Shown: positions 30,151 through 46,428, counted from the first letter of the stretch. The stretch is 64,000 nt of DNA from an uncultured bacterium (GCA_965372515.1 CBDVCO010000001.1:686-64685); one strand, 5' to 3'. A program made the numbers and translations. The notes: generated by a model from the letters alone, not told the origin.

Positions 30151-30207
30151 GCCCGGGCCTTAAGACCCGTCCCCGGTCAATGGAGAGCACATTGAACGCC
30201 CGCCCCA

Positions 30208-31071
30208 ATGGGCACTATCGGGCCAGCGAGTTTACTAATGATAGATAGAAAAACCCTGGAGATAAGTTCCTTCTCGTTCTTTCTTCTGATTATTATCTCC
30301 ATCTATTCCATTTTGACTTACGAGAGAAACTCCCACTGGGCCGACGAGTTGACCCTGTGGGAGGATGCGCAATTAAAATCACCATCTAAATCAAGGCCTT
30401 ATACCTACGCAGGTGTTGCTTACGCAAAAGATAAACGCCTGAAGGAGGCCTACAATAACCTCTCTCGAGCGGTTATGCTAAACCCGGCCGATATAGAGGC
30501 CAGATATAACCTCTCGATATTATATATGGAGCTTGGGAGATTTGATCTTGCTGAGGTTGGGTTCAAAAACGCCATAGAGAGCAGGCCGGAACTCAAAGAG
30601 TCCTATCTGGCGCTCTTTGACCTCTACTCTAAACAAGACCGCCCCGAGAAAGCGGCCTCCATTCTCGCTAGCGCCCAGTCCATGTGGCCTAATAATATAG
30701 GGATACGCCTGAAACTCGCCACCGCAAACGCCAGGAGCGGAAAGCTAAAAGAGGCTAAAGAGGGATACAATTGGGTTTTAAAGCGCGCTCGTGCCCGGAC
30801 GGAGGCGATAAGCGGACTCGGCAACATATATATGCTTGAGGGAAACTACACCCTTGCGCTCTCATATTACGAAAAGGCCATTGAGCTTCGCCCAGGCGAC
30901 CCGGTTGCCATCTACAACGCGGCACTTGTCTCAGAAAAACTTGGTGATAATGAGAAGGCCCTGAAATTCTACGCTCTCTTCATCAAGGCCGCTTCGGCTT
31001 CTGCCGAGCCTTATAATGAAGCCGTAAGAAATGCAAGGGAACGGGTCATACAAATAAGATCAGGTAACTAG
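30208..31071 (+). CDS. Membrane-anchored TPR-repeat protein (alternative start at 30238).
   Basis: One N-terminal TM helix, then about 6 TPR repeats. Confidence 0.5.
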   Translation: MGTIGPASLLMIDRKTLEISSFSFFLLIIISIYSILTYERNSHWADELTLWEDAQLKSPSKSRPYTYAGVAYAKDKRLKEAYNNLSRAVMLNPADIEARYNLSILYMELGRFDLAEVGFKNAIESRPELKESYLALFDLYSKQDRPEKAASILASAQSMWPNNIGIRLKLATANARSGKLKEAKEGYNWVLKRARARTEAISGLGNIYMLEGNYTLALSYYEKAIELRPGDPVAIYNAALVSEKLGDNEKALKFYALFIKAASASAEPYNEAVRNARERVIQIRSGN

Positions 31072-31225
31072 GTGCTTTAGAAATATGGCCCGGGCCGCAG
31101 TACCAATGGCCGGCACGAAAACCTTGACACCAATATTTTTACTATAGTATCATAAAGAATAGTGCATATAGACAAATAGACGCTATCCTGACTTGATCAC
31201 CTAAAAGAAAAGAGAAAAATTTACC

Positions 31226-32284
31226 ATGATAAAAAATAAGCTCCTAAAGATACTCTTCTCTCTTGCCGTGCCTTTGATGCTCTTCAGCTGCGGAGAGCCG
31301 AAGCTGAAAGAGCTCGTATGGCCCAACCTCCCGGACATACCTAGAATCAGGTACGTAAAGAGCTATCGCGGCCCTTCGGACATAGTTAAGAAGAGTTTCC
31401 TCATAGAGTCCCTGCTTGGCTCTTCAGGGTCGGTACGCTTTAGTAAACCGATGGGCATACTCTACGACGACAAAAGAGACAGGCTCATAATTGCGGACAC
31501 CGCCAAAAAGACCATCTTTATCATGGACAAAAAAAATGAGAGCTATTCAGCCCTGCACATAAGAGGCAGAGAGGCGTTTACTAAGCCGATTACCCCCAGA
31601 CTGGACTCCAAAGGCAGAATATTCGTCACAGACAGCGCCGGCAAACAGGTTTTGATGTTCACCAATGCCGGCAAATACATAAAACATGTCTTCAAGGACG
31701 GCAGATGGACAAGGCCCAGCGGAATCGCAATAGACAAAAAAAGAAAGAGGATCTACGTCTCAGACACGCACAAGCACAGGATTCAGGTATTTGACGAAGA
31801 TAGCCTGAAACTCATCCAGACCATAGGGGGCATACGTGGAACGGAAGAGGGGGAGATGAACTTCCCCACACACATGTTCGTCAATAAAAATAACGGAGAC
31901 CTGCTAGTCACAGACACAATGAACGCCAGGGTGCAGATCTTTGACTACAAGGGACGTTTTAAACTCACATTCGGCCAATTCGGCGACGGGCCCGGATTTT
32001 TCGCTCGTCCCAAAGGGATCGCCGTAGACTCTGAAGACCATATCTATGTAGCGGACGCGGGCTTCAATAACATTCAAATATTTGATTACGAAGGCAACAA
32101 CCTCATGGCCTTTTCAGGCTTCGGACGGGGTAGAGGGGCCATGATCCTTCCTGCCGGGATCTATATAGACGATGACGACATTATCTATGTATCCGACTCC
32201 TTCAATGAAAGAATTAATATCTATGAATTCATGGGGGATAAGTACAAAGAGAGGAAAAAGAAGGGTATAGTCCTGGATAGATGA
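31226..32284 (+). CDS. NHL-repeat (6-bladed beta-propeller) lipoprotein.
   Basis: Lipobox LFSCG. Repeated YV(S/A)D...(I/V)Q(V/I)FD NHL blades. Confidence 0.65.
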   Translation: MIKNKLLKILFSLAVPLMLFSCGEPKLKELVWPNLPDIPRIRYVKSYRGPSDIVKKSFLIESLLGSSGSVRFSKPMGILYDDKRDRLIIADTAKKTIFIMDKKNESYSALHIRGREAFTKPITPRLDSKGRIFVTDSAGKQVLMFTNAGKYIKHVFKDGRWTRPSGIAIDKKRKRIYVSDTHKHRIQVFDEDSLKLIQTIGGIRGTEEGEMNFPTHMFVNKNNGDLLVTDTMNARVQIFDYKGRFKLTFGQFGDGPGFFARPKGIAVDSEDHIYVADAGFNNIQIFDYEGNNLMAFSGFGRGRGAMILPAGIYIDDDDIIYVSDSFNERINIYEFMGDKYKERKKKGIVLDR

Positions 32285-32477
32285 TTTGCGTGCAGGGGCC
32301 TTTAGCGTAATACGGATGCAAATTTACTCCCCGCCAGGTCAATAATAGCGTAACCAACTGTAATATATACACAAGTTCACCTCCACGCAAGCACTTATCC
32401 GGCAAGCCAACCCCGCCTTATCCCCCAATATTAAGAAAAAAATGCACGATATTGATTAAAATCCGTTAATTTTTTCC

Positions 32478-32506
32478 TTGACAGATTTTAATATTGGGTA
32501 TAATAT
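32478..32506 (+). promoter_or_regulatory. Sigma-70-type promoter (TTGACA, with TATAAT at a 15-nt spacer or TAATAT at 17 nt) about 270 nt upstream of the tetraheme cytochrome gene.
   Basis: Consensus hexamers read directly from the sequence. It implies a 5' leader of about 265 nt. Confidence 0.45.
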
Positions 32507-32648
32507 TGGTAGTAACTACGGATCAACATGGCTCATGAAGGGCCCTCTAGCTCCGGAGTACATAGAGGTTATGTACCTGTCGATTCATGACGGATCAGCA
32601 GGTATTAATGGCGATGATGCCGCAATACTGCCTACGGCTGGCAGTTTT

Positions 32649-32677
32649 GAAGGTATTTTTTTATTTAAAATACCTTC
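32649..32677 (+). promoter_or_regulatory. Perfect 11-bp AU-rich hairpin (GAAGGUAUUUU/AAAAUACCUUC) in the long leader of the tetraheme cytochrome gene.
   Basis: Inverted repeat read directly. It overlaps the 3' end of a possible 51-codon uORF. Confidence 0.4.
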
Positions 32678-32777
32678 AAAAGACGACTGACGAGGGTTGT
32701 CTTCCAGATCTACCGTCCCTTTATAGTAAAGAGACGGAGATTAAAAAGATTTAGTTGTTTTTGAAAGGAGTTACACA

Positions 32778-33719
32778 ATGAAAAAGCTACTTACTTTTGC
32801 AGTAGGTCTCGGCCTCGTCTTCGCCGTAGCCAGCACAGCGTCAGCCATTACAAATCCTACAGACTACTCTGATGGCGACATAGCTAACGGTATTGTAAAC
32901 TCAAGGCACAACCTTGGTTCAACAGGCGTTCACTTCAGGGCCGACAACACGAACTCATCAACCGACACTGCTTCAGGCGGCGGCGGCACGAGTGAGGTCT
33001 GTATCTTCTGTCACACTCCTCACCACGGTTCAACCAACGCTCCGTTGTGGAACAAAGGCTCACAGTCTACAGCTAACTACACAACCTACGGTACAACGGT
33101 TGGCGGAACAAGCGCCGACACCACTCCTGGCGCCGCGACACTCGCGTGCTTGAGCTGCCACGATGGTGTTAACACCTTTGACACCATTGTCAACTGGCCT
33201 GGTAAGAGCGGTACGGGTACCAACGATAACGGCGGCGTGTCAACAGACATGGGCTGGTTATTCACCGAAGATGGTAACACCATGAGCGACTACATGACTT
33301 CAGGCAGGTTGAACCTCGGTACCGATCTACGTAATGACCACCCGGTATCCATAACCTACACTGAGGACAGAGCGTCACTCAGGCCTGTAAGCACTCAGAT
33401 CACCAGTGTAACCATGGAGAACGATGTGCTTACCGTTGTAGCGACCACATCAACATCAGCCACGACAACTGAGAACCTGTGGGCTGTAGGTGGTTACCTT
33501 GACGGAACCGCTTCCATTGACGGTATCCTCAGGAACGGTAAGGTCGAGTGTTCTTCATGCCACGACCCGCACTTCAAAAACCAGTCTTGGGATGAAGTCG
33601 CCGGTACATGGGGCGGTGGTAATGTCGTTGATGGTTCAGACGACATGGACGGTCTCTTCCTTAGAAGGGTCGGCGGTAACAGTCTCAGCGGTGTATGCAG
33701 AACCTGCCACAACAAGTAA
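32778..33719 (+). CDS. Secreted Thr/Gly-rich tetraheme c-type cytochrome of the doubled-CXXCH family.
   Basis: Sec signal ending ASA. Four CxxCH motifs (CIFCHTPHH, CLSCH, CSSCHDPH, CRTCH) with the SRHNL...C.FCHTPH pattern. Poly-Thr/Gly linkers. AAGGAG SD. Confidence 0.65.
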   Translation: MKKLLTFAVGLGLVFAVASTASAITNPTDYSDGDIANGIVNSRHNLGSTGVHFRADNTNSSTDTASGGGGTSEVCIFCHTPHHGSTNAPLWNKGSQSTANYTTYGTTVGGTSADTTPGAATLACLSCHDGVNTFDTIVNWPGKSGTGTNDNGGVSTDMGWLFTEDGNTMSDYMTSGRLNLGTDLRNDHPVSITYTEDRASLRPVSTQITSVTMENDVLTVVATTSTSATTTENLWAVGGYLDGTASIDGILRNGKVECSSCHDPHFKNQSWDEVAGTWGGGNVVDGSDDMDGLFLRRVGGNSLSGVCRTCHNK

Positions 33720-33772
33720 TTGTTCTGGCATAAGAAAAAAGAAAACGGTTAGAGCTAAAGATAACCGTTTAG

Positions 33773-33811
33773 AAAAAAAAGACGGGCCGTTCTTCGGCCC
33801 GTCTTTTTTTT
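33773..33811. terminator. Strong bidirectional intrinsic terminator.
   Basis: A8-GACGGGCCG-ttctt-CGGCCCGTC-T8, preceded by a second hairpin at 33743-33770. Confidence 0.8.
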
Positions 33812-34115
33812 ATCTTCTCTTTGCCTTTCTCCGTCAATAACCAGAGAGAGATAAGCCGCGCCAAATTAAAATCTTTTAATAACCGCCTAATCATGATTTT
33901 ATGCTATCCGGTTAAAATAGTGCCAGAATATTAATGTCTTACAGGTACTCGCGGGGCTATATATTTGCAGATCATACCGTTAAAAATATCTTTCGTTCTT
34001 AACGCACTCGAGAATTTATCCTTATTGACAAGAGATAATCGCTACGGGAACCATAACCACCTTGCCACCATTACTTAAACGGGTGTCAAGACAAACTCTT
34101 ACGGAGACAGTCGCC

Positions 34116-35159
34116 ATGAAGAAATTCTTTTCCCTCTCTCTATCTTTCATTCTACTGCTAACCTTATCCATCGGTCTATATATATCGGAGGTCAAGGCTG
34201 AAGAGGGCACATCTGCCGAGCAAACCCCCGCGGATGAAACATATGACCCTGATAAAGATCTCGTGGCAAAGGTAAACGACCATGAGATAACATATACAAA
34301 CTTCCAGATAGCCATAAACAACTTAATGCCAAAATTGGCCTATCATAAGTCAGTCAGTGAAAGACGCATGAAGATGATAGAAGAAAAGGCCCTGAATAAT
34401 CTTATAATGGACCATCTACTCTATGAAGAGGCAATAAATAGATCCATCAAGGTAACCAAAAGAGAGATCAAACAGGCAACAAGAAATTTTCAAAACAAAC
34501 TGCCAAAAGGCACGACTCTTAGAAAGGTATTGAAACAAAGCAATATGACCAGAGATGACCTTAAAGAGGTATTTAGAAGGTCGATGCTGATCCGGAAGAT
34601 CAGAGACGAATCAAACGAGGAATTCAACAAAAAGGTAGAAGAGCGGGTCAACGAAGAGTACATGAAAGAGTACTATGACAATAATCTCGACAAATTCGTA
34701 GAGCCTGAGAAACTACACCTGAGCGAGATACTCTTGAAGGCGGATCCTTCAGGCGGCAAGAGGCACTGGCTGGAGGTAAGGGATCAAACACTCGCCGTAG
34801 AAGCCAGAATTCGTGGTGGCGCTGACTTTGCCGAGGTGGCAAAAGAGGTCTCTCAAGACGCTTATGCTCCCAAGGGGGGCGATATGGGTTGGGCGCACTC
34901 AGGTACCCTGACAGTAGGACTTGAGGAAGCGGCACGAAAGCTTAAAGCCGGAGAGATAAGCGGTCCGATAGAAACACTCTACGGCTATCACATCATAAAA
35001 CTTCAGAAAAGAAAGCCCAAAAAGCTTAAGCCGTACGATGAATTGAATCATGAGAAATTGAAGAAAGAACTCAATATGTCCGAGTATAAAAGGCTAAAAG
35101 ATGAATGGCTTGATTCTCTTAAAGAGAAGGCCGTAATCGTATATTTTGATGATAAATAA
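34116..35159 (+). CDS. Periplasmic SurA/PrsA-like peptidyl-prolyl cis-trans isomerase (parvulin/PpiC type).
   Basis: Signal peptide, SurA-N-like helical domain, parvulin domain (GGDMGW...GYHIIK). GGAGA SD before ATG 34116. Confidence 0.7.
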   Translation: MKKFFSLSLSFILLLTLSIGLYISEVKAEEGTSAEQTPADETYDPDKDLVAKVNDHEITYTNFQIAINNLMPKLAYHKSVSERRMKMIEEKALNNLIMDHLLYEEAINRSIKVTKREIKQATRNFQNKLPKGTTLRKVLKQSNMTRDDLKEVFRRSMLIRKIRDESNEEFNKKVEERVNEEYMKEYYDNNLDKFVEPEKLHLSEILLKADPSGGKRHWLEVRDQTLAVEARIRGGADFAEVAKEVSQDAYAPKGGDMGWAHSGTLTVGLEEAARKLKAGEISGPIETLYGYHIIKLQKRKPKKLKPYDELNHEKLKKELNMSEYKRLKDEWLDSLKEKAVIVYFDDK

Positions 35160-35649
35160 GAATCCACATCTTCTAATTACGGCTTTTACGGCTGCCTTGC
35201 TCCTTTCATTTGCCGGTGGTTGCGGTCAGGATAGGGCTGAGAAGAGTTCAAAAAAAGAACCTCTTGCCGCCAGCACTACCCCGGCCAGCTACGTTAAAGA
35301 GATACCTCCGGCAGAGCCTGGAGATATTGCTCTAGGCAAGCTCGTCTATGAAAAACACTGCCATTACTGCCATGGAAGAAAAGGGCGTGGCAAAGGTGCG
35401 GTCTCAATAGCGGTCGTCCCTAACCCGGCCGATTTTATACGCGACGAAAAACGTATGGCAGTAACCGACGAAGCACTCTTTAAGTCATTGACATACGGGA
35501 TTACCAAGGAGAGCGGCGGACAAAAGCTTGAGAAAGCGCTGGCAATGCCTCCTTTTAAGGGGGTCTTAACAGTCAAAGAACGTTGGGACGTTATTGCCTA
35601 CATAAGGGAGCTTGTCAGAGAATCAGGGAGCGAAAAAAAAGAAAATTAA
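35146..35649 (+). CDS. Monoheme class-I cytochrome c lipoprotein.
   Basis: Lipobox FAGGCG, single CHYCH heme site, distal Met region (LAMPPF). Overlaps the PpiC gene by 14 nt. Confidence 0.6.
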   Translation: MMINKNPHLLITAFTAALLLSFAGGCGQDRAEKSSKKEPLAASTTPASYVKEIPPAEPGDIALGKLVYEKHCHYCHGRKGRGKGAVSIAVVPNPADFIRDEKRMAVTDEALFKSLTYGITKESGGQKLEKALAMPPFKGVLTVKERWDVIAYIRELVRESGSEKKEN

Positions 35650-35683
35650 CTACATTTCTTATTATTTATAAAGCTTTAGACTT

Positions 35684-35692
35684 TGTTATAAT
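35684..35692 (+). promoter_or_regulatory. Extended -10 promoter element (TGtTATAAT) upstream of the cyt-FGE operon.
   Basis: TGnTATAAT read directly, about 107 nt upstream of ATG 35799 in an AT-rich spacer. Confidence 0.3.
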
Positions 35693-35798
35693 GAGGTGTA
35701 TATGATATAATTTCTTTAGCAATTACAATATCTTAAGCAATAGACAACTATAGACTGACATCAGGATTAGACCGGCCTTCTCTCAATATCTTAAATGG

Positions 35799-36818
35799 AT
35801 GGATACCCCAATGAAACATTCAAGTTTTAAAAGATTATCTTCTTTTCTACTCTTTTTCGCCGTTCTCCTAATCTCCATGCCTGCCTTTTCAAACCCGAAC
35901 GATTACCATCCGGAAACCGGCGAGCCCAAGTGCATGAACTGCCATACCCCTGATAGAAAATACTCAATAGATTATACACGCCAGGAGAGTTGCGCCGAGT
36001 GCCACGGATCAGGCTTGAGCGAACGATATCTATCCATAAACGGGCGCTATCAAAAGATAGAGGATCATGCCGGAAACGAGCCCATAATAGTGGCAAAAGT
36101 GAACTCGGCTAAAAAAAATCCAACCAAAGCCTCCACAAAGGAGATGATCCTTATAAAGGCAGGCGAATTCACCATGGGGTCTAACGACTGGTGGCCCAAG
36201 AGCCAACCGGAGCACAAAAGAGACCTGAAAGCATTTTATATAGATAAATTCGAGGTGACCAACCGCCGCTACATGGAATTCGTCAAGGCTACCGGCTACC
36301 CCCATCCAAAACACTGGAGAGGAGGAGTAATACCGCCGGACAGGCTGGAACACCCGGTAACTTATGTAAACTGGTTCGATGCCGATAATTTCTGCAGGTG
36401 GGAGGGTAAGAGGCTTCCCACCGAACCTGAGTGGGAAAAGGCGGCCAGAGGAACCGACAAAAGGACCTTTCCGTGGGGCGATAAATTCGATAAAGAGAAA
36501 GGGAATACGCCGCAATACGGCCACGGCGATACTCTACCGGTTGGGAGCTTTACCAGCGGTGTAAGCCCCTACGGTGCCCATGATATGGCCGGCAATGTCT
36601 TTGAATGGTTAAGCGACTGGTTTCAACCGTATCCCGGGAACAACCACCCGGATGAAAACTACGGCGAGCTGTACAAAATTGTCCGCGGCGGTTCATGGTA
36701 CGACTGCACATATTATAAATGCGGAATCAGCGCGCCTACCTATAACCGTATATTCTTCAACCCCTACACAAAGAACAATAATTTCGGTTTCAGATGTGTG
36801 AAAGATGATAAGAAATGA
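35799..36818 (+). CDS. Exported fusion protein: N-terminal diheme cytochrome c plus an FGE-sulfatase (SUMF1/formylglycine-generating-enzyme family) domain that retains the Cys-x4-Cys pair.
   Basis: Signal peptide, CMNCH and CAECH heme motifs. FGE-family core (HPVTYVNWFDA..FCRW.GKRLPTEPEWEKAARG; RGGSWYDCTYYKCG; FGFRCVKD). Confidence 0.65.
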   Translation: MDTPMKHSSFKRLSSFLLFFAVLLISMPAFSNPNDYHPETGEPKCMNCHTPDRKYSIDYTRQESCAECHGSGLSERYLSINGRYQKIEDHAGNEPIIVAKVNSAKKNPTKASTKEMILIKAGEFTMGSNDWWPKSQPEHKRDLKAFYIDKFEVTNRRYMEFVKATGYPHPKHWRGGVIPPDRLEHPVTYVNWFDADNFCRWEGKRLPTEPEWEKAARGTDKRTFPWGDKFDKEKGNTPQYGHGDTLPVGSFTSGVSPYGAHDMAGNVFEWLSDWFQPYPGNNHPDENYGELYKIVRGGSWYDCTYYKCGISAPTYNRIFFNPYTKNNNFGFRCVKDDKK

Positions 36819-38401
36819 AAAACTCTGAGAGAGAATTAAAAAACGGTGCCAGGTTCTTCGTCTTTACAACCTTTGTAAGCGGTGCCGTTATAATGGTCGT
36901 TGAGTTGCTAGGCTCAAGGATTATCGGCCCTTCTTTCGGAGTAAGCCTCTTCATCTGGACTTCTCTTATAACCGTCACTCTTGTGTCCCTCGCACTTGGT
37001 TACTGGCTCGGCGGGAAGCTCGCCGACCACAAGAGCTCCCCTACCGTACTCTTCACCATCATCCTCGTTGCCGGACTCTCACTCCTGCTGGTCCCGCTTA
37101 TAAAGAGCTTTATAATTTCCAACGCCCTCTTTCTCGGACTGAGGCTTGGCACCCTTGTAAGTTCTTCCATACTTTTCGGCCCGCCTCTCTTCCTCCTTGG
37201 CATGGTAACGCCCTATATTGTAAAGCTCAGCTTCGAGGACAAAACTACAATTGGAAAGACCGTCGGGTGGTTATATGCCATCAGCACGGCAGGGAGCGTA
37301 GTCGGAACCGTCTTAACCGGTTTTCTACTGATACCGAGACTTGGGGTAGACAATATAGTATACCTATCTTCGCTGGTACTTATTTCCTTAAATGCGATCT
37401 ATTGGCTCTTTTTTAAGAATCGATACATCTATCTTTGCCTGATTTTAATTCCTGTTGCGCTGATACTGATGCCTGAGAGACAGTTAAGTGTCTTACGCGA
37501 AGATGGTACCAAAGTCTCTGTTAAAGTTAATAAGGACAGCCCTTACGGACAAATCAAGGTGGTTGATTACTCATACGGCGACACACTTTACAGGGAATTC
37601 CTTATTGAGAATATAATACAGGGAGGAATTGACGTCAACTCCGGGTTATCGATCTTTAAATACCAATACCATCTCGAACAACTCGCGCACGCGTACGCAA
37701 ATGACGCCAGCAATGCATTAATAATAGGGCTTGGCGCCGGAATCGTGCCCCAAAGGTTCAAGCAGTTTTATAATATAAAGAGCGATATCGCCGAGATCGA
37801 CGAGATGGTGGTTAAGACGGCCAAAGAATACTTCTTTTTTGAACCGGATGAAGGCTCTGTCTTTACGCTCGACGGCCGTTACTTTCTACGCTCAACCAAT
37901 GGACGTTACGACATAATAATACTGGATGCTTTCTCAGGGGACAGTCCGCCAAGCCATATGGTAAGCATTGAAGCCTTTGAGCTTATGAAAAAGAGACTCT
38001 CACGAGACGGAGTATTACTCATTAACTTCCTTGGAAGCAATGAGAAAGAGAATACGTTTGTCCTTTCATCACTTGATAAGACACTAAGGGAGGTTTTTAA
38101 CTTTGTCGATGTCTATGTATCGGAAGAGTACTATCATCAATCGGCGCGGATCTTGAATTTTACATTTGTAGCCTATCTTGAAGACAAGAAGAAGGGAAAA
38201 AAGCTATCAATTCGCCCGCCTATACACGCGCAGTTCACCAGGGACCTGGAGGGACTTCTTGACAGACGGATTTTACTTTCCGGCGACGCCATTACACTTA
38301 CGGACAACTACAACCCAATCGACTTCTACGACATGAAAATGAGAGAATGGCTCAGGGAAGAGAGCATAAAAACAGCCGATCGAATGATTGTCGTTCATTA
38401 G
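36815..38401 (+). CDS. Fused multi-TM membrane domain plus spermidine-synthase-like (aminopropyltransferase-fold) domain.
   Basis: About 7-8 TM N-terminus, then a SpeE-like Rossmann core (LIIGLGAGIVP...DIIILDAF). Start overlaps the upstream gene by 4 nt. Confidence 0.6.
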   Translation: MKNSERELKNGARFFVFTTFVSGAVIMVVELLGSRIIGPSFGVSLFIWTSLITVTLVSLALGYWLGGKLADHKSSPTVLFTIILVAGLSLLLVPLIKSFIISNALFLGLRLGTLVSSSILFGPPLFLLGMVTPYIVKLSFEDKTTIGKTVGWLYAISTAGSVVGTVLTGFLLIPRLGVDNIVYLSSLVLISLNAIYWLFFKNRYIYLCLILIPVALILMPERQLSVLREDGTKVSVKVNKDSPYGQIKVVDYSYGDTLYREFLIENIIQGGIDVNSGLSIFKYQYHLEQLAHAYANDASNALIIGLGAGIVPQRFKQFYNIKSDIAEIDEMVVKTAKEYFFFEPDEGSVFTLDGRYFLRSTNGRYDIIILDAFSGDSPPSHMVSIEAFELMKKRLSRDGVLLINFLGSNEKENTFVLSSLDKTLREVFNFVDVYVSEEYYHQSARILNFTFVAYLEDKKKGKKLSIRPPIHAQFTRDLEGLLDRRILLSGDAITLTDNYNPIDFYDMKMREWLREESIKTADRMIVVH

Positions 38402-38436
38402 TAGAGGAACACAAATATAATATGGGAGAAAAATTA

Positions 38437-39243
38437 ATGAATCACCTATTTCATCAAGCAAAGATAAAATCGAAATTCTACCTTCCTCTTATGGCTATCC
38501 TGATCCTTTTATCCGGCTGCTCAAGGCCTCCTGAAGGAATGGTCAATATCGCCGAAGGGGAGACTATTATTGGCAGCAACGAGATAGACGCCGAAGGTAA
38601 GGCCATACAGTACGGTAATAAGAAACCGTGGTTTCTAAACGAACATCCGGAGCACAAGATCATTGTAAAAGAATTCTATATAGACAAGTTTGAAGTAACA
38701 AATAAAGACTATCGGGAATTCGTAGCCGCCACAAATCACAGAGCACCTTCCTACTGGCAACAAGGTTCGTTCCCGTCCAACTTGTCAGACAACCCTGTCA
38801 ACATGATCAGTTGGTTCGATGCAAAGGCGTACTGTAAATGGAAAAACAAGCGGCTGCCAACCGAGGCTGAGTGGGAAAGAGCGGCACGCGGGAACGACGG
38901 AAGAAGATTCCCATGGGGCAACGACTTCGACCTCAAAAAGCTCAATACCATGGGGATGCACGGTGGCACTACCCCGGTAGGGACATTCATGGAAGGCAAG
39001 AGCCCTTACGGTCTCTTTGATATGGCTGGTAACGTTCAAGAATGGACCCTGGACTCTTACAAGGCGTATTCTGGAAACGATTATGAGGATAACGACTTTG
39101 GCGAAAGGTTTAAAGTAGTACGCGGTGGAGGATGGGGCGGCATAGGCCATTACGCTTCAGAGGTATATGTAAGAACCGCATACAGAAACTATGCCCCGCC
39201 GGGAGGTACCTACGATGACGTTGGATTCAGATGTGCATGGTAG
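38437..39243 (+). CDS. FGE-sulfatase-domain lipoprotein lacking the catalytic Cys pair (PvdO-like, probably non-catalytic).
   Basis: Lipobox LLSGCS. FGE core (NMISWFDAKAYCKWKNKRLPTEAEWERAARG; RGGGWGG...VGFRCAW) without the Cx4C motif. GGGAGA SD before ATG 38437. The ORF-track start at 38347 is rejected. Confidence 0.65.
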   Translation: MNHLFHQAKIKSKFYLPLMAILILLSGCSRPPEGMVNIAEGETIIGSNEIDAEGKAIQYGNKKPWFLNEHPEHKIIVKEFYIDKFEVTNKDYREFVAATNHRAPSYWQQGSFPSNLSDNPVNMISWFDAKAYCKWKNKRLPTEAEWERAARGNDGRRFPWGNDFDLKKLNTMGMHGGTTPVGTFMEGKSPYGLFDMAGNVQEWTLDSYKAYSGNDYEDNDFGERFKVVRGGGWGGIGHYASEVYVRTAYRNYAPPGGTYDDVGFRCAW

Positions 39244-39301
39244 TAATTTTAACCTGAATGACAGACTTGAAAATGTCACTTATTGATCGAGGCTCAAAAA
39301 T

Positions 39302-41284
39302 ATGCTCAACTTCAAGAACATACGGACATCTCTCGATTACGCATATTCCAGCCTATCCTCCAGAATACTGTTGTGTGGAGCTATCCTACTCTTAGTCATC
39401 CTGTTTAAACCAACTCTGTCATATAGCCGTTTAGCGCCCTTAGACCCGCGTGATCCGTATATACATAGAACATTGACCCTGGACGTGGGCTTTAATTTTA
39501 GGACCTCTTCATCCAAAATAGGAGACTTTCAGTCAAAACGAAGATGGAGCTTCGGCGAAAGCTATAAAGTATCTATACGCGGCAGCGTGATCGACCCGAG
39601 ATTTATGGTCTACGACTATTATACGTTTTATTCTCAAAGCCGGAATTCCACCAATCAAACTGGGAGCAATCTTGGCCTGGGTATAAAATCAACCATTTTC
39701 AGAAAGTTCAGATTTCCGGTTACCTTATATGAATACCGCTTTTATGGCAAAGATGTAATCAGAGATTCGTTCGGTGCCAGATCGCTCTTAAGGTTCAGGA
39801 GACTTCCTACTACCAGACTAAGAGCAAATTATGACAGGACGGAAACCGACACCAATATCTCCTTCAATTCAAACTATCAATTGAAGATGGATAAGAATAT
39901 TGGTCCAACATCTAATACGTTGAATTACGCTTATTCTATAAATGACAATGGCGCTACGCAATCTAATCTTGCCATAACCAATGGAACGCGTTTATCGCGA
40001 GCCACAAAAATGAACGCCGTTCTAGCTCATAATGTGGCCACTCCATCTGATATATCGGACGAGGACAAAACAAGTACAGGATTTACAATGTCGCTAGTGT
40101 CCAGGACGAGCGATGACTTCAGGCAGTTACACCAATATGCGGCCTACTCAAGCGAAACCACTTCGACTGAAGGAACCGTGACTGTCGATGGACAAAGCTA
40201 CAACGGAGGATGGAATTTTGCATTACTAAAAAATCTATCTACAGGCGGAGGAATATCCGTTTCAGAGAGTAATTCTCATGGCATCTCCAGTGAGAGCACT
40301 TCAGAAAGTTTTTCTGCACACTGGAACCTGAATTATACCATTACCAGGGGACTATCCCTTGTATGGGACTCATCATATCGAAGCACTCGTTCAAGTATTA
40401 TCTCGATATCGACCGACGAATCGAGCAGCGAGTATTTCAATACCAACATGGGCGTTACGTACTCTAGACGGATTCGCTCCGCCTCATTCTCATCAAGTTA
40501 TAGGGTCGGCTATGTTGAAGAGCTCTCCCTGCCTCTTAATGGCGGAGGAACAGGACTACGTCAGGGGATTAGTTTAGGTCTAGGCAACCTACATTATAAA
40601 AAAGTCTACGTCAATACCTCGTACAATGCAAGCCGCGTTGACGTTCTGACTGGCGACATCTGGTCCACATCACAATCCCTATCCGTTACAGCAACACCAA
40701 GATACTGGACAAAATATGGAAGCATAGGCTCTTCATATAGATTCAGAACCTCTAGGAACTGGCGTAACCCTGAAGCGGTCTCATCACATAATTTAAACTT
40801 TAATGCCAGGAGCAGAGAAATAAGAAGGACAAGAGGATCTGCAAGCCAGAACTTTTCAATAGAAAAGTCCGGTCATTTAAGCGATTCTACAAATAAAATA
40901 AGTTCTTCCAGGCTTTCCATTTCTCACAACAGAACAGTCATGGGAGGAAAAACTCAACTTTCTTTCTTAATCAATTATCGCAAGCACGAGCATGGAAGGG
41001 CTCTTAACAAGCGTATAGATGCAAGATTCAAAGCGGGGTACTTTAGGCCACTTTTTAGGCGCGTCGCTTGGCGTTCCTATTTCGACTACTCTAGAGGCAA
41101 AGACCTTAGCAATAACACAAGCCATTCCGATACGAGCTTCGCAAACACTCTCGCATACAATCTAAGGAGTTGGAGCATTTTTGCGGAGCATCAAATTACA
41201 CATTCTTCAAGCAAGCATACCGCTACTATTATTAAAGAACAATTTATGTTAATCTTAAAAAGATCTTTCGTCAGGGGATTCTGA
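39302..41284 (+). CDS. Putative large outer-membrane beta-barrel protein, Ser/Thr/Asn/Arg/Tyr-rich, 660 aa.
   Basis: Signal-like N-terminus. Pervasive alternating hydrophobic/polar beta-strand pattern. C-terminal Phe (VRGF) typical of an OMP beta-signal. Confidence 0.45.
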   Translation: MLNFKNIRTSLDYAYSSLSSRILLCGAILLLVILFKPTLSYSRLAPLDPRDPYIHRTLTLDVGFNFRTSSSKIGDFQSKRRWSFGESYKVSIRGSVIDPRFMVYDYYTFYSQSRNSTNQTGSNLGLGIKSTIFRKFRFPVTLYEYRFYGKDVIRDSFGARSLLRFRRLPTTRLRANYDRTETDTNISFNSNYQLKMDKNIGPTSNTLNYAYSINDNGATQSNLAITNGTRLSRATKMNAVLAHNVATPSDISDEDKTSTGFTMSLVSRTSDDFRQLHQYAAYSSETTSTEGTVTVDGQSYNGGWNFALLKNLSTGGGISVSESNSHGISSESTSESFSAHWNLNYTITRGLSLVWDSSYRSTRSSIISISTDESSSEYFNTNMGVTYSRRIRSASFSSSYRVGYVEELSLPLNGGGTGLRQGISLGLGNLHYKKVYVNTSYNASRVDVLTGDIWSTSQSLSVTATPRYWTKYGSIGSSYRFRTSRNWRNPEAVSSHNLNFNARSREIRRTRGSASQNFSIEKSGHLSDSTNKISSSRLSISHNRTVMGGKTQLSFLINYRKHEHGRALNKRIDARFKAGYFRPLFRRVAWRSYFDYSRGKDLSNNTSHSDTSFANTLAYNLRSWSIFAEHQITHSSSKHTATIIKEQFMLILKRSFVRGF

Positions 41285-41416
41285 CAACGTTAGGACCGAG
41301 CGAAAACAAAAGCATTATAATGCAACATTCCATTTTATTCATATTTCTTATCATTGTCCTTAAGGATGGGAAATAAGGCAAACTCGAATAGAGCATATTA
41401 CTAATATTGCCAAGCG

Positions 41417-43525
41417 TTACCTTCCGGATCTTCCAATGGATTTTGCTCTATTTAGCCTGGCTTTAGCCTCTCTGTAGTCTGGATCGATCTCAAGGACCTT
41501 CTCGAAACTCTCGATTGCCGCCTCGAACTCGCCACTGTCTAAATATATAAGACCCAGATTAAAGTACGCGTCAGGCCCTTTGGGATCAACCATAACTGTC
41601 TCCTTATAGTAGCGCTCGGCCAGGCGAATATCACCGACATAGTGATAGACCCAGGCAAGGCCGTAAAGCGCCCTTGCGTTCTTTGGTTCAAGTCTCACGG
41701 CCTCTTTAAAAGAATTGATCGCACTCTGGTTATCCCCTACCTCCTGAAAACTCCATGCAAGATTATAGTGGGCAATACTACTAAAGGGATTTAACTCTAC
41801 TGCCTCTTTATAAAAACCAAGAGCGGCGGCCGGATTTCCGCTCTGCTTATAGGCCTGGGCGAGGTTGCCCCTGGCCCTCTCGTTTAATGGATTTACACGG
41901 ATTGTCTCCTTATAAAAATGAATCGCCTTCTCAACATCCCCTGCCTGATCATAAATAACCGCAAGGTTAAAAAAGGCCTTGTCGTTTAACGGATTTAATC
42001 TGATTGTCTTCTCATAGTAAGCCGCTGCATTCAATTGATCGTCCATATCATTATAAATAAGAGCCAGGTTATAGTACGGTTTATAGTTAAAGGGCTCAAG
42101 CCTGACGACCCGTTTATAGTACTCGATAGCCTCCTCGTTATCTCCCTGCTCGCGAAAAGCCGCCGCCAGACCCAGATTTACTATCGCGCTTTCAGGGGCC
42201 GAGTTTACCGTATCGGACCAAAGGCTCATGGAGTCCGTCCATACCATACTCCTCCTCACAGTAAAGACTCCGTATAGGGCAAAAATTGCGAGCAAAACAA
42301 TCAAGACGGCCTTTCGCCTCTCTGCGGCTCTCAAAAAAATGGCATGAAATATCACGGCGACTATCATGGCGAACCCGGCCGATGGCAGATAGAGATACCT
42401 GTCGGCAAAGCCGCCCGTCGAAACTACCGGTATATAGAGTACCGGCAGGAGCGGAATAATGATCCATAAAATAGGGAAGAATACGGCGGCCCTTCGCCTG
42501 AACGCCACAAGGAGCAAGCAAATAACAACCATTACCGCTATAGAGAGTAAGACCATAGGCTCGAAGAGCGAATAAAAAGGTTCAAGGACGTAGATGACGC
42601 TTAAGTTAGCGGGCCATAGGAGTTTGCCCATATAACGCAGGATTGCAGGAAAGATATTCACCATGGATCCATAAAGCCCGGTACCGGCCATCTCCTTTTG
42701 CGCAAACCCTCCAAGGGCATATGTACGAAGCACCATATAAATTACAGCCGCAAGAATATATGGGATATAGGTAAGATAGCGCTTTATGAAGGAGCGCCCT
42801 TTTGTCGAGAAGTCATAGCACCAGATAATGAGCAAAAAAGCCATGGCCGTCTCTTTACTGAGGAGCGCTATAAAGAAGAGGATAACAGAGAGAATCGTCC
42901 ATAGGGTTCTGCCCCTTAAGAACGCGTTCAGGTCGAGCCTTATGTATATATAGAAGGCCGCCAGAAGAAAGAGCGTGTATAGAAGCTCCGGAAGAGCAGA
43001 GACCCAGTTGACCACCTCGCTGTTAATGGGGTGAAGCGCGAAGATCAGGGCGGCAACAAAGGCCCAGTACGTAGCGCTTGAAGAGTGCGCCCTCTCAAGT
43101 GCAGCCTCTAGCTCCCCTTCCTGTTCCCCTTCGGACTTGTTCACCCCAAAGCCCATGGACCTAAAGAGCGTCGAGACGACGAGAAAGACGAAAAGGCTGT
43201 TCAGGGAGTGTAGGATAATATTTAAGAGATGAAAAACCACCGGGTAAAAACCGAAAAGATGATACTCGGCCAGAAATACCAGATGCATCACGGGCCTATA
43301 ATAATTTGACCCTGCCGTCTCCTTCATAAACGACCAGGAGGCGGAGAAGAAAATATCACCAAGATGCGCCGTATCGACGATCCAGGGATTGCCGAGCACC
43401 TGCTCCATATCGTCGTATACAAAGCCGTGAAATAGTGTCGGCAGATATACGATACAAGTTACTAGAAAGAGCGTAGCGAACAAAACGTATCCAACGCTCT
43501 TCTTGTGAGTTGGCAATATAGCCAT
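41417..43525 (-). CDS. Second TMTC/PMT-like GT-C membrane domain plus TPR protein, also 702 aa. Paralogue of 27282..29390.
   Basis: Same architecture (HGFVYDDMEQV loop motif, multi-TM, C-terminal TPRs). Confidence 0.6.
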   Translation of the reverse strand: MAILPTHKKSVGYVLFATLFLVTCIVYLPTLFHGFVYDDMEQVLGNPWIVDTAHLGDIFFSASWSFMKETAGSNYYRPVMHLVFLAEYHLFGFYPVVFHLLNIILHSLNSLFVFLVVSTLFRSMGFGVNKSEGEQEGELEAALERAHSSSATYWAFVAALIFALHPINSEVVNWVSALPELLYTLFLLAAFYIYIRLDLNAFLRGRTLWTILSVILFFIALLSKETAMAFLLIIWCYDFSTKGRSFIKRYLTYIPYILAAVIYMVLRTYALGGFAQKEMAGTGLYGSMVNIFPAILRYMGKLLWPANLSVIYVLEPFYSLFEPMVLLSIAVMVVICLLLVAFRRRAAVFFPILWIIIPLLPVLYIPVVSTGGFADRYLYLPSAGFAMIVAVIFHAIFLRAAERRKAVLIVLLAIFALYGVFTVRRSMVWTDSMSLWSDTVNSAPESAIVNLGLAAAFREQGDNEEAIEYYKRVVRLEPFNYKPYYNLALIYNDMDDQLNAAAYYEKTIRLNPLNDKAFFNLAVIYDQAGDVEKAIHFYKETIRVNPLNERARGNLAQAYKQSGNPAAALGFYKEAVELNPFSSIAHYNLAWSFQEVGDNQSAINSFKEAVRLEPKNARALYGLAWVYHYVGDIRLAERYYKETVMVDPKGPDAYFNLGLIYLDSGEFEAAIESFEKVLEIDPDYREAKARLNRAKSIGRSGR

Positions 43526-43686
43526 CTTCTGAGCCTTAAATAATGAGAACGAATTGTTAAATAGGCATAATTAAAGGATTTCCCCTGCAAGGCCTACATC
43601 ATTGGACATTTTAACTCAATTAAGGAGGAATTTTCAAGGCCAAGCATCTACTTGATTTAATTCGTATTTTGCTATAGACTGTATCC

Positions 43687-46422
43687 ATGCTTACCTCCTA
43701 CAACAATGACAAGATATCGCTATTTGCCCCCCTAATAAAGAACAGGGAAGTTTTCCTGAGCGGTATGCCATGGCTACTGGATCCCGCAAAAATTCGCTTC
43801 AAGCTCGGTGAGACCCTCAAGGATCTCAAAGTGCCCTACCACATGGGCAAAGAGGATGAAGCTATTATTGGTAATGCCATCACGAGCCTCGTCTCCCTCT
43901 TACAAACGCGCTATCAAAAGGACTCCCCTGAGGCCGGAAAGAAGAAGCAGAGCACATTCAGCTCAACCCCCACAACAAAGAGCGAACCCCTGATGGATAC
44001 GACCTACTGGCTAGGAGTATTCAAGCAGGATTCTCTCGAGATGAGTCTCGCCAAAGATATACTTCGTACAACACCATTGATTGACAGCGCGATTCTCAAG
44101 CAATGGCTCGATAAGAACGGTAAGGGCGGAAAACTACTTCAATGGACAATGACAATCCTTGAAAAAGCACTTTGCGAGGAAGCAGGAGATGAAAGCGGAG
44201 AGATGACCTCATACATGGTGCTACTGGCCATAATTACGACCATTGTCAAGAAGAAGGAACGGATAAAGGATTTTACAATCAAGGGCGCTTCGCTTGAAAG
44301 GATAGACGTAGCGACCGGTTCCACACTCTTTATGACCATTAAAGCCGCGGTGGAAGAACTCTTTAAAAAGATCAAGACCTCCGAGTCGATCTACTGCAAC
44401 CCGGCGACCGAATCTATTCTTAAAAGCACGGTTATCCCCGAGTCATTCCTGCTGATACCCAGCGTACTCCTTAGTAACTCGCTGAATCCATACGGGATAA
44501 GGAATGAGACGGCTGAGATCATATCCGCGTACACACCCGAGACCAGCCAGTGGCCTGATGATGTCGAAAAACTCATAAATAAATCTTTTAAACAACTCAC
44601 AGGAAATAAGAAGGACAAACAAAAGCTCTGGACTTACTGTCTGATCACCAAGTTCAGGGAGCATATAATAAACTATCTCATGCAATACGACCTGCCGGGC
44701 ACAAAAGGGCACGAGTTATTCTACGACCTCTATCGTGAGGATCGTCATATGCATATACTCGACCCCAAGACGCTCGACTCTTTAAGCTCTCTTTTGGACG
44801 AGTTTACGGACAAATACGGGAAGGATCAGGAAAGGATTGAGAAATTTACTTTATTAAAACACCTGATTGAAATATTAAGAAGTGAAAAAACCATGGCAAA
44901 GGAAGCCAAATCAAAACAAGGCGCCCAGATCATATCCGACATGGTCAGGGGTTTCATAGCTTACAAACTGGACTCACATGCCTCTCAATTCATAGGCGCT
45001 TCGAGAGGGGCCCTCGTTAACAGGCGCGAGAAATACACCGGCGACCTTCTTTTGGAAGAATTCAAAAATGGCAGACTATACAGGTTTTCAAGCGACCGCA
45101 GGGAGATTCTCTGCGGGCTGACCATCAAACAAGAGGGTCAACTTATCATCGACATGAAGGATTTCACAAAAAAGACCTTGAAATTAAAAGAGATCGCAAT
45201 GGCCGACTTTATGAAAGAGAATTTTTATGAACCGATACTAAACGAGGCAAAGAAATACGGGATCGATAAGGGGCTTGTTGACAAAGATGCCGGCATTACC
45301 CTTAACGGCTTGCCTGGAGACGCCGCAATATTCTCAGGCGGCGTCGGCAACCTGATCTCTCTTGCAGAGGATATAAGCAAGGTTATCAAAGACTACCGCG
45401 AGAAGGTAAAAGAGAAATTTCTGCCAAAGCTTGACAAACACATCCAGACGATACATGAAAGATACCTGAGCCAACAGAAACGGGAGGCAGAGGAGAAGGA
45501 AGACTTGAGGGAGTTGATCGGTCTTGATGACAGCCTCGTCTCGCTTGATGACGCAGAGGATATGGTCGAACAAATCACGCGCGATGAGTTGGAAGCCACT
45601 ATCACCGAGGAGATGGATGCCGGCCTCTTCATCTCTTACGGCGTAAAAGCTGAGACAATGCTACTAGAGACTAAAGACGGGACTAATGAGCCTCCCGTCA
45701 AGGTAGCTATCGGCGAGAAGATCAACGAGTCCAGCAGGGGAACGGACCGGAACCTTGCCGTCATGAATAAGAGCGCCGCGCTCCTGGAGGAGGAGAAGCA
45801 TCAAAGAAGTAACGATAGCTTAATCAATCCTTTTGAGGTCCACATAGACAAGATATTCAATATTCGCATACCTGCTGAAATTGAAAATATGCTTGGAAAA
45901 GAATTTCGTGGAGAGGCCAAACACGACACTTCCGAGCTTATCGAAAAGCTTATGGATGAATATTCAAACGACCTTGAAAAAATACGTCAGGATATGCCGC
46001 CTGACTCACTTAAGGCCCTTCACATAAGAACGCAGCTTTACAACAAGGGTCACGCCCTATCCAAAGAAGCGCTCAACGCCTATATAAGAGAGGCGACCGG
46101 CAGGAAGTTCTTCTTTAAAAAAGAACTTCCTGTCACAGATCTTTCGCCAGCCATACAAGAAAATTTCTATTTCCCACGGAATATAAATGAGTTCTGGTTC
46201 AGCGTGGAGGTAAAAAAGGGCGTTGAAAAGGTCGAGCTCTTCTCCAGGGTCGGAGAGATGGTCTTCAAGGGTTTTGAATCCTCTCCGCCGACCGAAATCT
46301 ACGAGATCATCGATCGGGACGGAGAGTTCTTTAAGGCAATTTTAAACGATCACTTCAACGGTTGGTTCAAGGAGGCTCAAAAGGCCGCTAACGTCAAATA
46401 CGAAACCCCGGCCGAGAAATAA
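43687..46422 (+). CDS. Large (911 aa) cytoplasmic hypothetical protein, K/E-rich, with cryptic class-III nucleotidyl-cyclase-like motifs in the central region.
   Basis: No signal peptide or TM helices. Motif series IIDMKDFT ... LPGDAAIFSGG ... GEKINESSR parallels FxDIxGFT / IGDAYM / GDTVNxASR of adenylyl/guanylyl cyclase catalytic (CHD) domains. The region has lower GC than its neighbours. Confidence 0.5.
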   Translation: MLTSYNNDKISLFAPLIKNREVFLSGMPWLLDPAKIRFKLGETLKDLKVPYHMGKEDEAIIGNAITSLVSLLQTRYQKDSPEAGKKKQSTFSSTPTTKSEPLMDTTYWLGVFKQDSLEMSLAKDILRTTPLIDSAILKQWLDKNGKGGKLLQWTMTILEKALCEEAGDESGEMTSYMVLLAIITTIVKKKERIKDFTIKGASLERIDVATGSTLFMTIKAAVEELFKKIKTSESIYCNPATESILKSTVIPESFLLIPSVLLSNSLNPYGIRNETAEIISAYTPETSQWPDDVEKLINKSFKQLTGNKKDKQKLWTYCLITKFREHIINYLMQYDLPGTKGHELFYDLYREDRHMHILDPKTLDSLSSLLDEFTDKYGKDQERIEKFTLLKHLIEILRSEKTMAKEAKSKQGAQIISDMVRGFIAYKLDSHASQFIGASRGALVNRREKYTGDLLLEEFKNGRLYRFSSDRREILCGLTIKQEGQLIIDMKDFTKKTLKLKEIAMADFMKENFYEPILNEAKKYGIDKGLVDKDAGITLNGLPGDAAIFSGGVGNLISLAEDISKVIKDYREKVKEKFLPKLDKHIQTIHERYLSQQKREAEEKEDLRELIGLDDSLVSLDDAEDMVEQITRDELEATITEEMDAGLFISYGVKAETMLLETKDGTNEPPVKVAIGEKINESSRGTDRNLAVMNKSAALLEEEKHQRSNDSLINPFEVHIDKIFNIRIPAEIENMLGKEFRGEAKHDTSELIEKLMDEYSNDLEKIRQDMPPDSLKALHIRTQLYNKGHALSKEALNAYIREATGRKFFFKKELPVTDLSPAIQENFYFPRNINEFWFSVEVKKGVEKVELFSRVGEMVFKGFESSPPTEIYEIIDRDGEFFKAILNDHFNGWFKEAQKAANVKYETPAEK

Positions 46423-46428
46423 AGAGTC

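Follow-up and report, generated by a model that had tools for sequence, protein, structure and literature searches.

What is the function of a gene set that joins a diheme c-type peptide fused to a formylglycine-generating enzyme (FGE) fold, a membrane protein related to spermidine synthases, a second FGE-fold lipoprotein and a large outer-membrane barrel? The four genes in question, designated P1 to P4, occupy positions 35799-41284 (all + strand) of a 64-kb stretch of DNA from an uncultured bacterium (GCA_965372515.1, CBDVCO010000001.1:686-64685), the whole of which is referred to here as the window. A preliminary description of the stretch had read them as a self-contained trans-envelope system of a kind not described before. 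Comparison with related loci points to a different answer. P1 to P4 make up the downstream half of a conserved, chromosomally inserted locus of ~19 kb (27282-46422) and ~12 genes, and we lean toward a reading in which they take part in building and wiring an OmcE-type extracellular cytochrome filament, with P4 as its conduit or anchor, P2 as an accessory, and a trio encoding a monoheme cytochrome c, P1 and P3 as a recruited redox module.

Results

The conserved block is larger than P1-P4

Ten independent syntenic loci were compared, namely the window, L001 (on the complete genome CP129479; L002 is near-identical to it), L003, L005, L006, L007, L085, L086, L087 and L088, from uncultured Thermodesulfobacteriota/"Deltaproteobacteria". 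Their common order is triheme c7 lipoprotein, NHL-repeat propeller lipoprotein, OmcE-like tetraheme cytochrome, peptidyl-prolyl isomerase (PPIase), monoheme cytochrome c, P1, (P2), P3, P4 and a small tetratricopeptide repeat (TPR) protein, beyond which lie genes for a HEAT protein, membrane/TPR proteins and an orphan of ~910 aa. In the window, the block comprises the following features:

29506-30150, + strand: triheme c7-type cytochrome lipoprotein (PF14522, 1.3e-12; TIGR04257 nanowire_3heme, 63 bits against a cut-off of 40; three CxxCH; lipobox ISGC)
30208-31071, + strand: small TPR protein (Pfam TPR families; tblastn matches to the gene after P4 in L005 and L007)
31226-32284, + strand: NHL-repeat six-bladed β-propeller lipoprotein (PF01436, 4.5e-31; DUF5128, 2.4e-24; lipobox LFSC)
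32778-33719, + strand: OmcE-like tetraheme cytochrome, 313 aa, T/G/S-rich, presumed filament subunit (phmmer matches to PDB 7TFS and 9YUQ; four CxxCH)
33773-33811, + strand: intrinsic-terminator-like hairpin after the OmcE-like gene (17-bp stem, 8 GC pairs, T-run)
34062-35159, + strand: PPIase of the SurA-N plus PpiC type, periplasmic chaperone (PF00639, 6.2e-20; SurA_N_3, 1.8e-14)
35146-35649, + strand: class I monoheme cytochrome c (His/Met) lipoprotein (PF13442, 2.5e-11; CxxCH; lipobox AGGC)
35799-36818, + strand: P1, diheme c peptide plus FGE-fold domain, exported, 339 aa (PF03781, 1.6e-59; two CxxCH; loop DCTYYKCG with C303/C308)
36815-38401, + strand: P2, fused membrane/spermidine-synthase-like protein, 528 aa (NF037959, 2.6e-74)
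38437-39243, + strand: P3, FGE-fold lipoprotein lacking the Cys pair (open reading frame (ORF) open from 38347, 298 aa; PF03781, 7.5e-56)
39302-41284, + strand: P4, 32-strand outer-membrane β-barrel, 660 aa, C-terminal Phe (AlphaFold2 (AF2) model)

The c7 gene heads the block in L001, L003, L006 and L085-L088, and the NHL propeller gene is kept in all syntenic loci. The small TPR gene, which in the window lies between these two, directly follows the barrel gene in other loci. P2 is present in five of the ten loci (the window, L001, L005, L086 and L087) and missing from the other five (L003, L006, L007, L085 and L088). The monoheme cytochrome c gene adjoins P1 in every nanowire locus and also in the stand-alone modules L004, L013 and L018.

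Distant genomes keep only the trio of cytochrome c, P1 and P3, without OmcE or the barrel, beside unrelated housekeeping genes. They include Ca. Manganitrophus (L008), Nitrospirota (L004) and other metagenome-assembled genomes (L013, L015, L018), one deltaproteobacterial, and the trio's neighbors are UbiA/UbiD and OmpA in one case and PFOR, RecR and DnaG in another. The trio lies at 3914-6806 in L013 and 2435-4756 in L004. In some distant loci the cytochrome c gene was not found beside P1, and some carry extra Cys-less FGE paralogues: only the P1-P3 pair was found in Ca. Manganitrophus sp. GAC4 (CP114561, 9986-11960), and three tandem Cys-less paralogues stand behind P1 in L018 (6055-9916). 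A scan of genome contigs with a P1 profile returned no Geobacter locus; most of its 80 matches were Cys-less FGE-only genes, found through a generic D[ML]AGNxxE pattern.

Because P2 is missing from half of the loci, the trio occurs alone and the conserved block is larger, P1-P4 are not a functional unit of their own. As judged from gene order, the evolutionary units are (a) the ~12-gene nanowire locus and (b) a mobile cytochrome c-P1-P3 module. Conserved gene order in other genomes, which the earlier proposal required, was confirmed across the ten loci, and its self-contained four-gene unit was not: the module includes the cytochrome c gene, and the block extends to the OmcE-like, PPIase, NHL and TPR genes.

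The locus resembles known nanowire clusters

The presumed filament subunit matches the OmcE filament of G. sulfurreducens (PDB 7TFS, E=1.8e-15, phmmer) and a second OmcE-type filament (9YUQ, E=1.5e-11, phmmer), and its four CxxCH motifs contain all eight of its Cys residues, with none elsewhere. OmcE loci have been described as containing genes for propeller lipoproteins and for a large barrel with a supposed role in secreting or anchoring the filament, along with GT39/TPR genes, with the export, assembly and anchoring of nanowires acknowledged as a gap (bioRxiv 10.1101/2025.10.22.684050). When these descriptions are taken as the marks of an OmcE-type locus, an OmcE-family tetraheme subunit is found at 32778-33719, and the propeller lipoprotein and large outer-membrane barrel named in that preprint are found in the same cluster and are kept in all ten loci. 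By these sequence marks, the locus is very probably an OmcE-type extracellular cytochrome filament locus. With its OmcE-like subunit, NHL propeller, PPIase and TPR proteins, the conserved block belongs to a described kind of system, the cytochrome-nanowire locus, and on this point the claim of an unprecedented system does not stand.

Likeness to the OmcE clusters of Geobacter and Desulfuromonas extends to the tetraheme OmcE-family subunit, the propeller lipoprotein, further c-type cytochromes, a large outer-membrane barrel and GT39/TPR genes. In contrast, a PPIase, an FGE-fold protein, a class I cytochrome c and a SpeE-like protein, all encoded in this locus, are not listed for the published minimal OmcE cluster. 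The OmcE-like protein here is 313 aa long, as compared to 232 aa for OmcE, and P4 is likened to the Geobacter OmcE-locus barrel by description only.

A second point of comparison is the omcS-companion (osc) cluster of G. sulfurreducens (GSU2501-GSU2493; Shen et al. 2025, Cell Chem Biol 32:239, as described in citing papers), for which it has been proposed that the PPIase OscH folds, OscEFG secretes and OscD shapes OmcS filaments (PMC13194489; 10.1101/2025.11.06.686851). A PPIase is also required for OmcZ (10.64898/2026.07.18.739370). As in this locus, the filament cytochrome gene of the osc cluster is followed by genes for a propeller, a PPIase (OscH), cytochromes and an NHL protein; its subunit, however, is the hexaheme OmcS, whereas no hexaheme cytochrome is encoded here, and the citing papers indicate no FGE-fold gene. 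The lengths given for OscE, OscF and OscG are 701, 169 and 367 aa; OscE is 76% helical, and OscG has a mixed α/β content with ~35% helix (PMC13194489 supplement). On those figures, OscE falls in the same size class as two 702-aa membrane/TPR proteins of this locus (see below), a likeness of size and not of sequence. P1-P4 were also considered as counterparts of OscEFG, an assignment ruled out by the sizes and secondary-structure contents given there for the Osc proteins. The locus joins features of the OmcE and osc clusters, namely the OmcE-type subunit, the propeller, the barrel and the PPIase.

The terminator-like hairpin at 33773-33811, behind the OmcE-like gene, is an arrangement typical of strongly expressed filament-subunit genes with read-through into assembly genes. 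All nine aligned orthologues of the monoheme cytochrome c keep the CxxCH together with a Met-Pro ligand motif, and it is therefore a His/Met class I cytochrome, a class in which the redox potential is usually high.

P4 is modeled as a 32-strand barrel

P4 had been described as a large S/T/N-rich barrel ending in Phe, and this description was borne out. S, T and N make up 31.4% of the protein, its C-terminus reads ...VRGF, and its AF2 model (mean predicted local distance difference test (pLDDT) 89.7) is a plug-less barrel of 32 strands (residues 57-659) in which all loops are at most 7 residues long. By standard barrel geometry, a circular 32-strand barrel measures ~56-59 Å from Cα to Cα, as compared to ~46-48 Å for the 26-strand MtrB/LptD. 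Because the modeled barrel has neither a plug nor long loops, its pore would be permanently filled, with the filament or the filament base as the simplest occupant. The model makes it likely that P4 is the outer-membrane conduit or anchor of the filament. Porin-cytochrome conduits (MtrAB-C and Geobacter Pcc) differ from this arrangement in that they have 26 strands as opposed to 32, in that no decaheme insert protein is found here, and in that the extracellular partner here is a filament-type tetraheme cytochrome.

P4 has no match in Pfam or NCBIfam and evolves fast, with 25-28% identity across loci whose P1 proteins are 53-77% identical. Word-index searches returned three proteins only, even with a 47-sequence profile, and a full hidden Markov model (HMM) scan of 1.84 billion proteins found a family of 76 representatives. 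The homologues with names belong to the uncultured groups that also supply those of P1 and, in the cases checked, share a contig with one of the latter.

P1 fuses two hemes to an FGE fold that keeps a Cys pair

P1 probably starts at ATG 35811, which gives 335 aa as in the public call. A Sec-type signal peptide is followed by CxxCH motifs (residues 45 and 65) and by a PF03781 domain over residues 113-335 with the loop RGGSWYDCTYYKCG (C303, C308), in agreement with the exported fusion proposed earlier. Given the signal peptide together with the covalent c-hemes that its motifs predict, P1 must be periplasmic, again as proposed. Matches to FGE-fold structures in the PDB range from E ~1e-25 to 1e-40, and within the active-site loop of this fold the C-x4-C pair falls between GGS and the conserved Arg.

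A word-index search for P1 homologues returned 7,981 proteins at E ≤1e-10, of which the best 120 were examined. These 120 are 53-100% identical to P1, mostly across at least 89% of its length, and 118 of them keep both CxxCH motifs and the C-terminal C-x4-C. In a 36-sequence alignment C45, C48, H49, C65, C68, H69, C199, C303, C308 and C333 are invariant, as are D302, Y306 and H283. Since hemes and Cys pair are conserved to this degree, the fusion is genuine, as had been assumed, and not a product of a frameshift or an assembly artefact. All homologue records come from uncultured Thermodesulfobacteriota/"Deltaproteobacteria"/Nitrospirota. Their public names are 'formylglycine-generating enzyme family protein', 'SUMF1/EgtB/PvdO family nonheme iron enzyme' or that of an ergothioneine enzyme, and none mentions the hemes. 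The name 'gamma-glutamyl hercynylcysteine S-oxide synthase', carried by two homologues (P0083 and P0089), is almost certainly wrong, at 120 bits against a cut-off of 360. When P1 was compared with the EgtB/OvoA/SenA model, only its C-terminal FGE-like part aligned (profile positions 271-412 of 413), and neither a DinB-like 3-His domain nor a full-length match was found.

The P1-specific conserved candidates for distal heme ligands are M126 and H283 (motif NHPDENYG). As these sole candidates both sit inside the FGE domain, the conservation pattern suggests that the hemes pack directly on that domain; they would be either ligated by it or five-coordinate. The AF2 model of P1 has a pLDDT of 68.7. 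No paper tying FGE-fold proteins to c-type cytochromes or extracellular electron transfer was found in the searchable literature (Shen et al. 2025 lay outside full-text coverage), and a heme-fused FGE relative is apparently undescribed.

Hemes and Cys pair are inherited together. The fetched loci contain 98 FGE-domain ORFs, 15 with the C-x4-C pair and 83 without it. Eleven of the 15 have two CxxCH motifs, two are cut by a contig end and two have none, while two CxxCH motifs occur in none of the 83 without the pair. This distribution suggests that hemes and Cys pair are linked in function.

P3 is a Cys-less paralogue of P1

The four same-strand genes are arranged as first described, with one amendment. 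The start of P3 is most likely ATG 38437, which gives a 268-aa lipoprotein (MNHLF...LLSGC); a GGGAGA ribosome-binding site lies 7 nt upstream, and P3 orthologues are 263-276 aa long. With this start P3 does not overlap P2. The P1/P2 junction is ATGA, a 4-nt overlap, and gaps of 35 nt and 58 nt separate P2 from P3 and P3 from P4. An AT-rich promoter-like region (35665-35729) lies 5' of P1.

P3 also has a PF03781 domain, and its identification as an FGE-fold lipoprotein without a Cys pair was upheld: its loop is RGGGWGGIGHY. It is 45% identical to P1 over 234 aa, and WGG(M/I)GHY stands where P1 has WYDCTYYKC, a difference kept in orthologues. SUMF2 (1Y4J) is among the PDB matches, and because P3 is a P1 paralogue that has lost the pair, the two resemble, by analogy, SUMF1 and SUMF2. 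Copper FGEs (EC 1.8.3.7) and their inactive relatives (human SUMF1/SUMF2; the FGEs of S. coelicolor and T. curvata) share with P1/P3 the fold, the C-x4-C spacing, and the combination of an active-looking subunit with a Cys-less paralogue. Unlike these enzymes, P1 is exported and covalently heme-bound, its loop is two residues longer, no sulfatase substrate is encoded in the window, the host is a presumed anaerobe and the partner is a lipoprotein.

The suggestion that P3 is of the PvdO type was not supported at the equivalog level, as the two proteins reach 43.8 and 46.8 bits where 500 are required, and P3 has only the absence of a Cys pair in common with PvdO. PorK, GldK and GldJ of the type IX secretion system (T9SS) are FGE-fold lipoproteins without catalytic Cys that work beneath the very large outer-membrane barrel SprA (36 strands). 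P3 matches GldK at 6e-24 and PorK structures at 5e-13. The equivalog cut-off is 350 bits, and P1 and P3 reach 82.8 and 85.1. No further T9SS components were seen, with no T9SS gene among the neighbors examined, and P1 carries hemes and a Cys pair.

P2 is a probable accessory with altered motifs

P2 had been read as a multi-spanning membrane protein fused to a SpeE-like aminopropyltransferase. The architecture stands: P2 belongs to NF037959 ('fused MFS/spermidine synthase'), whose cut-off of 40 bits it exceeds with 250.7 bits over residues 24-503, and a transmembrane scan gives ~7 hydrophobic segments. The function does not. In alignments to solved spermidine synthases the motifs of the S-adenosylmethionine fold are matched, but GGGDG, which discriminates for decarboxylated S-adenosylmethionine, is replaced by GLGAG, and DSSDP, with its D-x-x-D-P Asp pair, by DAFSG; scores against SpeE equivalogs are at most 57 bits where 250-537 are required. 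P2 is probably no aminopropyltransferase, as far as its motifs tell, and because it is missing from five of the ten loci it is an optional accessory outside the core of the system.

Flanking genes and base composition

The remaining genes of the locus are:

27282-29390, + strand: 702-aa polytopic membrane protein with C-terminal TPR repeats (weak PMT_2 match, 1.4e-06, to a GT39-like N-terminal domain; many TPR families in Pfam; hydrophobic segments)
41417-43525, - strand: second 702-aa polytopic membrane protein with TPR repeats, convergent with P4 (TPR families; ~10 hydrophobic segments)
43687-46422, + strand: 911-aa orphan protein without signal peptide or transmembrane segment, at the distal end of the locus

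The two 702-aa proteins are paralogues that bracket the locus, one on either side, and the second has orthologues in L003, L005, L006, L007, L087 and L088. The weak PMT_2/GT39 match of the first, together with the T/S-rich composition of the OmcE-like protein, hints at O-glycosylation of the filament. The 911-aa orphan has no match in Pfam, NCBIfam or the PDB; orthologues of 35-46% identity occur in L001, L003, L006, L007, L085 and L088 (at 17618-20329 in L001, 18655-21146 in L003, 15624-18365 in L085 and 18100-20883 in L088), and it could be a cytoplasmic component of the nanowire system. In three loci a gene for a ParA/MinD-like ATPase lies just upstream on the opposite strand (L001, 2268-4231; L086, 2923-4878; L087, 3198-4472; all -), joined in L001 and L086 by a PilZ-domain protein. 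The two, neither of which is found in the window, may be a c-di-GMP-linked regulatory or positioning pair.

The 27282-29390 gene marks the upstream edge of a low-GC cluster (~27000-46500, GC 0.43-0.48) between flanks of 0.50-0.55 whose genes are housekeeping genes (argG, aminotransferases, hslU, xerC-like, lepA and amtB). As its GC lies below that of these flanks, horizontal acquisition of the whole locus is suggested. An Rfam scan of the window gave no match.

Discussion

On the reading that we prefer, the OmcE-like subunit would be exported, loaded with heme in the periplasm, folded with the help of the PPIase, in the manner of OscH for OmcS and of the omcZ-operon PPIase for OmcZ, and polymerized at or through P4. 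The cytochrome c lipoprotein, P1 and P3 would make up a redox module of their own in the periplasm, close to the outer membrane, with P1 as the active subunit and P3 as a catalytically dead partner, as SUMF2 is to SUMF1. Electrons would move between the class I cytochrome c and the pair of hemes in P1, and between these hemes and the Cys-pair site, which may be either a Cu(I)-thiolate center or a redox-active dithiol. Because the trio exists without nanowire genes, it is seen as a self-contained enzyme that was recruited, and not as a dedicated part of a secretion apparatus. The nanowire locus may have recruited it to modify or mature an exported component, and that substrate would be no classical sulfatase. 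No sulfatase signature occurs in any ORF of at least 80 aa in the 64-kb window, in keeping with the absence of a sulfatase gene reported before; no C/SxPxR motif occurs in the locus proteins save one SFAQR in a TPR protein; and no free Cys is found in the cluster proteins, the sole Cys of P4 lying inside its signal peptide. If the substrate is a protein of the locus, the chemistry would therefore be unlike classical formylglycine formation, because neither a free Cys nor a CxPxR is available.

Several observations weigh against this reading. The homology of the OmcE-like protein to OmcE is ~30% identity, local, and confined to the N-terminal half, and filament formation is deduced from it; P4 has no detectable sequence link to any characterized barrel; and the source organisms of all these proteins are uncultured. 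In P1, the diheme peptide (~residues 32-80) lacks a conserved distal His or Met, the AF2 model falls below pLDDT 50 in the loop (residues 297-319), and the correlation of hemes with the Cys pair is in part phylogenetic, as it concerns one clade. FGE chemistry needs O2, which is possibly scarce for these presumed anaerobes. The register of the putative Cu ligands is also ambiguous. The reference ligands for Cu(I) are C336/C341 in human FGE and C272/C277 in S. coelicolor FGE. While phmmer places C303/C308 on the Cu pair of the S. coelicolor enzyme (CHDSYC), the alignments to human FGE made with MAFFT, hhalign and a family-profile hmmsearch equate C303 to C341 and C308 to C346.

A count from flanking anchors (GGS299/S333, R317/R349, P322/P354 and GFRC333/C365) bears on this choice. 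The Cu-pair register costs two single-residue indels and the shifted register gaps of 4, 2 and 4 residues. Under the former, P1 also differs from P3 by just one additional Cys pair; the only Cys residues kept in P3, C163 and C296, correspond to C199 and C333. The count favors the Cu-pair register by reasoning and not by proof. Whichever register holds, the active-site loop contains the pair, and at least one Cys stands at a catalytic position. The assignment of P1 as a catalytic thiol/copper oxidoreductase coupled to heme is tentative. A further step is more speculative still: the trio may be a periplasmic oxidoreductase of a new class, FGE-like and wired to cytochrome c, in which a heme-to-Cys2(Cu) active site is joined by a pseudo-enzyme partner. 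It would act on exported proteins and, in these bacteria, would install a modification that an OmcE-type filament requires for its polymerization, anchoring or tuning, the filament passing through a single-chain pore of 32 strands and of matching size.

Four alternatives were weighed. One is the original proposal, that the four genes form an autonomous trans-envelope system in which a diheme-fed periplasmic copper FGE converts a Cys or Ser in a secreted cytochrome or outer-membrane protein, with the SpeE-like protein and the barrel completing the assembly. All of its domain calls stand, hemes and Cys pair are tightly coupled, the S. coelicolor alignment and its flanking anchors agree on the Cu ligands, and the adjacent class I cytochrome c is a possible reductant. 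Yet half of the syntenic loci do without P2, Nitrospirota carry the module without P4, the cluster proteins offer neither a free Cys nor a C/SxPxR substrate, and three alignment methods shift the pair by one Cys, all of which makes this proposal unlikely.

A structural alternative would make P1 and P3 a non-enzymatic FGE-fold scaffold, comparable to PorK/GldK, that forms a periplasmic collar or plug under P4, with the P1 hemes, fed by the cytochrome c and the triheme c7 protein, passing respiratory electrons to the filament base. FGE-fold domains are widely reused as binding modules, and such reuse is reflected in the PDB matches, among them PorK and T. denticola variable protein 1. The plug-less ~57 Å barrel calls for an occupant, P1 and P3 match both GldK/PorK models and PorK structures, and P3 and the cytochrome c are lipoproteins with a non-Asp residue at +2, consistent with outer-membrane anchoring. 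Such a scaffold leaves the invariant C-x4-C, D302, Y306 and H283 and their co-inheritance with the hemes hard to account for, however, and the trio persists in genomes without OmcE or P4; with GldK scores of 83-85 bits against a cut-off of 350, we regard this alternative as improbable too.

P1 might instead handle periplasmic thiols or copper, either as a Cu(I) chaperone or detoxifier or as a heme-linked dithiol/disulfide oxidoreductase that keeps the CxxCH Cys residues of apocytochromes reduced while the filament subunit is produced in bulk. FGE binds Cu(I) very tightly, the Cys pair sits in a flexible loop near c-hemes, and a cytochrome with eight heme-binding Cys is encoded nearby with a strong terminator that suggests high expression. 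Against this, P1 has no thioredoxin-like fold or CxxC motif, and the stand-alone modules do not lie beside cytochrome-maturation or copper genes, which makes such a role distinctly doubtful. Least probable is an ordinary exported FGE that matures Sec-exported sulfatases encoded elsewhere: the PF03781 domain with a Cys pair in its active-site loop and the public label of the family would fit, but neither the 64-kb window nor the examined genes of the syntenic and stand-alone loci hold a sulfatase or CxPxR, the canonical CH.SYC.RYR loop is replaced by DCTYYKCGISAP, and the strict tie to cytochromes and to a dead paralogue is, to our knowledge, not a feature of known FGEs.

To return to the preferred reading, the locus offers a compact, conserved parts list for a nanowire outside Geobacter, one that includes a 32-strand barrel, a dedicated PPIase and a heme-fused FGE-like protein with its dead paralogue. 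The modeled barrel is geometrically wide enough for a folded heme protein or a filament. If the proposed role of P1 is true, copper/thiol FGE chemistry would extend to a cytochrome-driven periplasm and would have there a physiological electron partner that cytosolic FGEs lack. The presence of the trio in Nitrospirota and Ca. Manganitrophus suggests that its function is broader than nanowire biogenesis and does not yet have a name.

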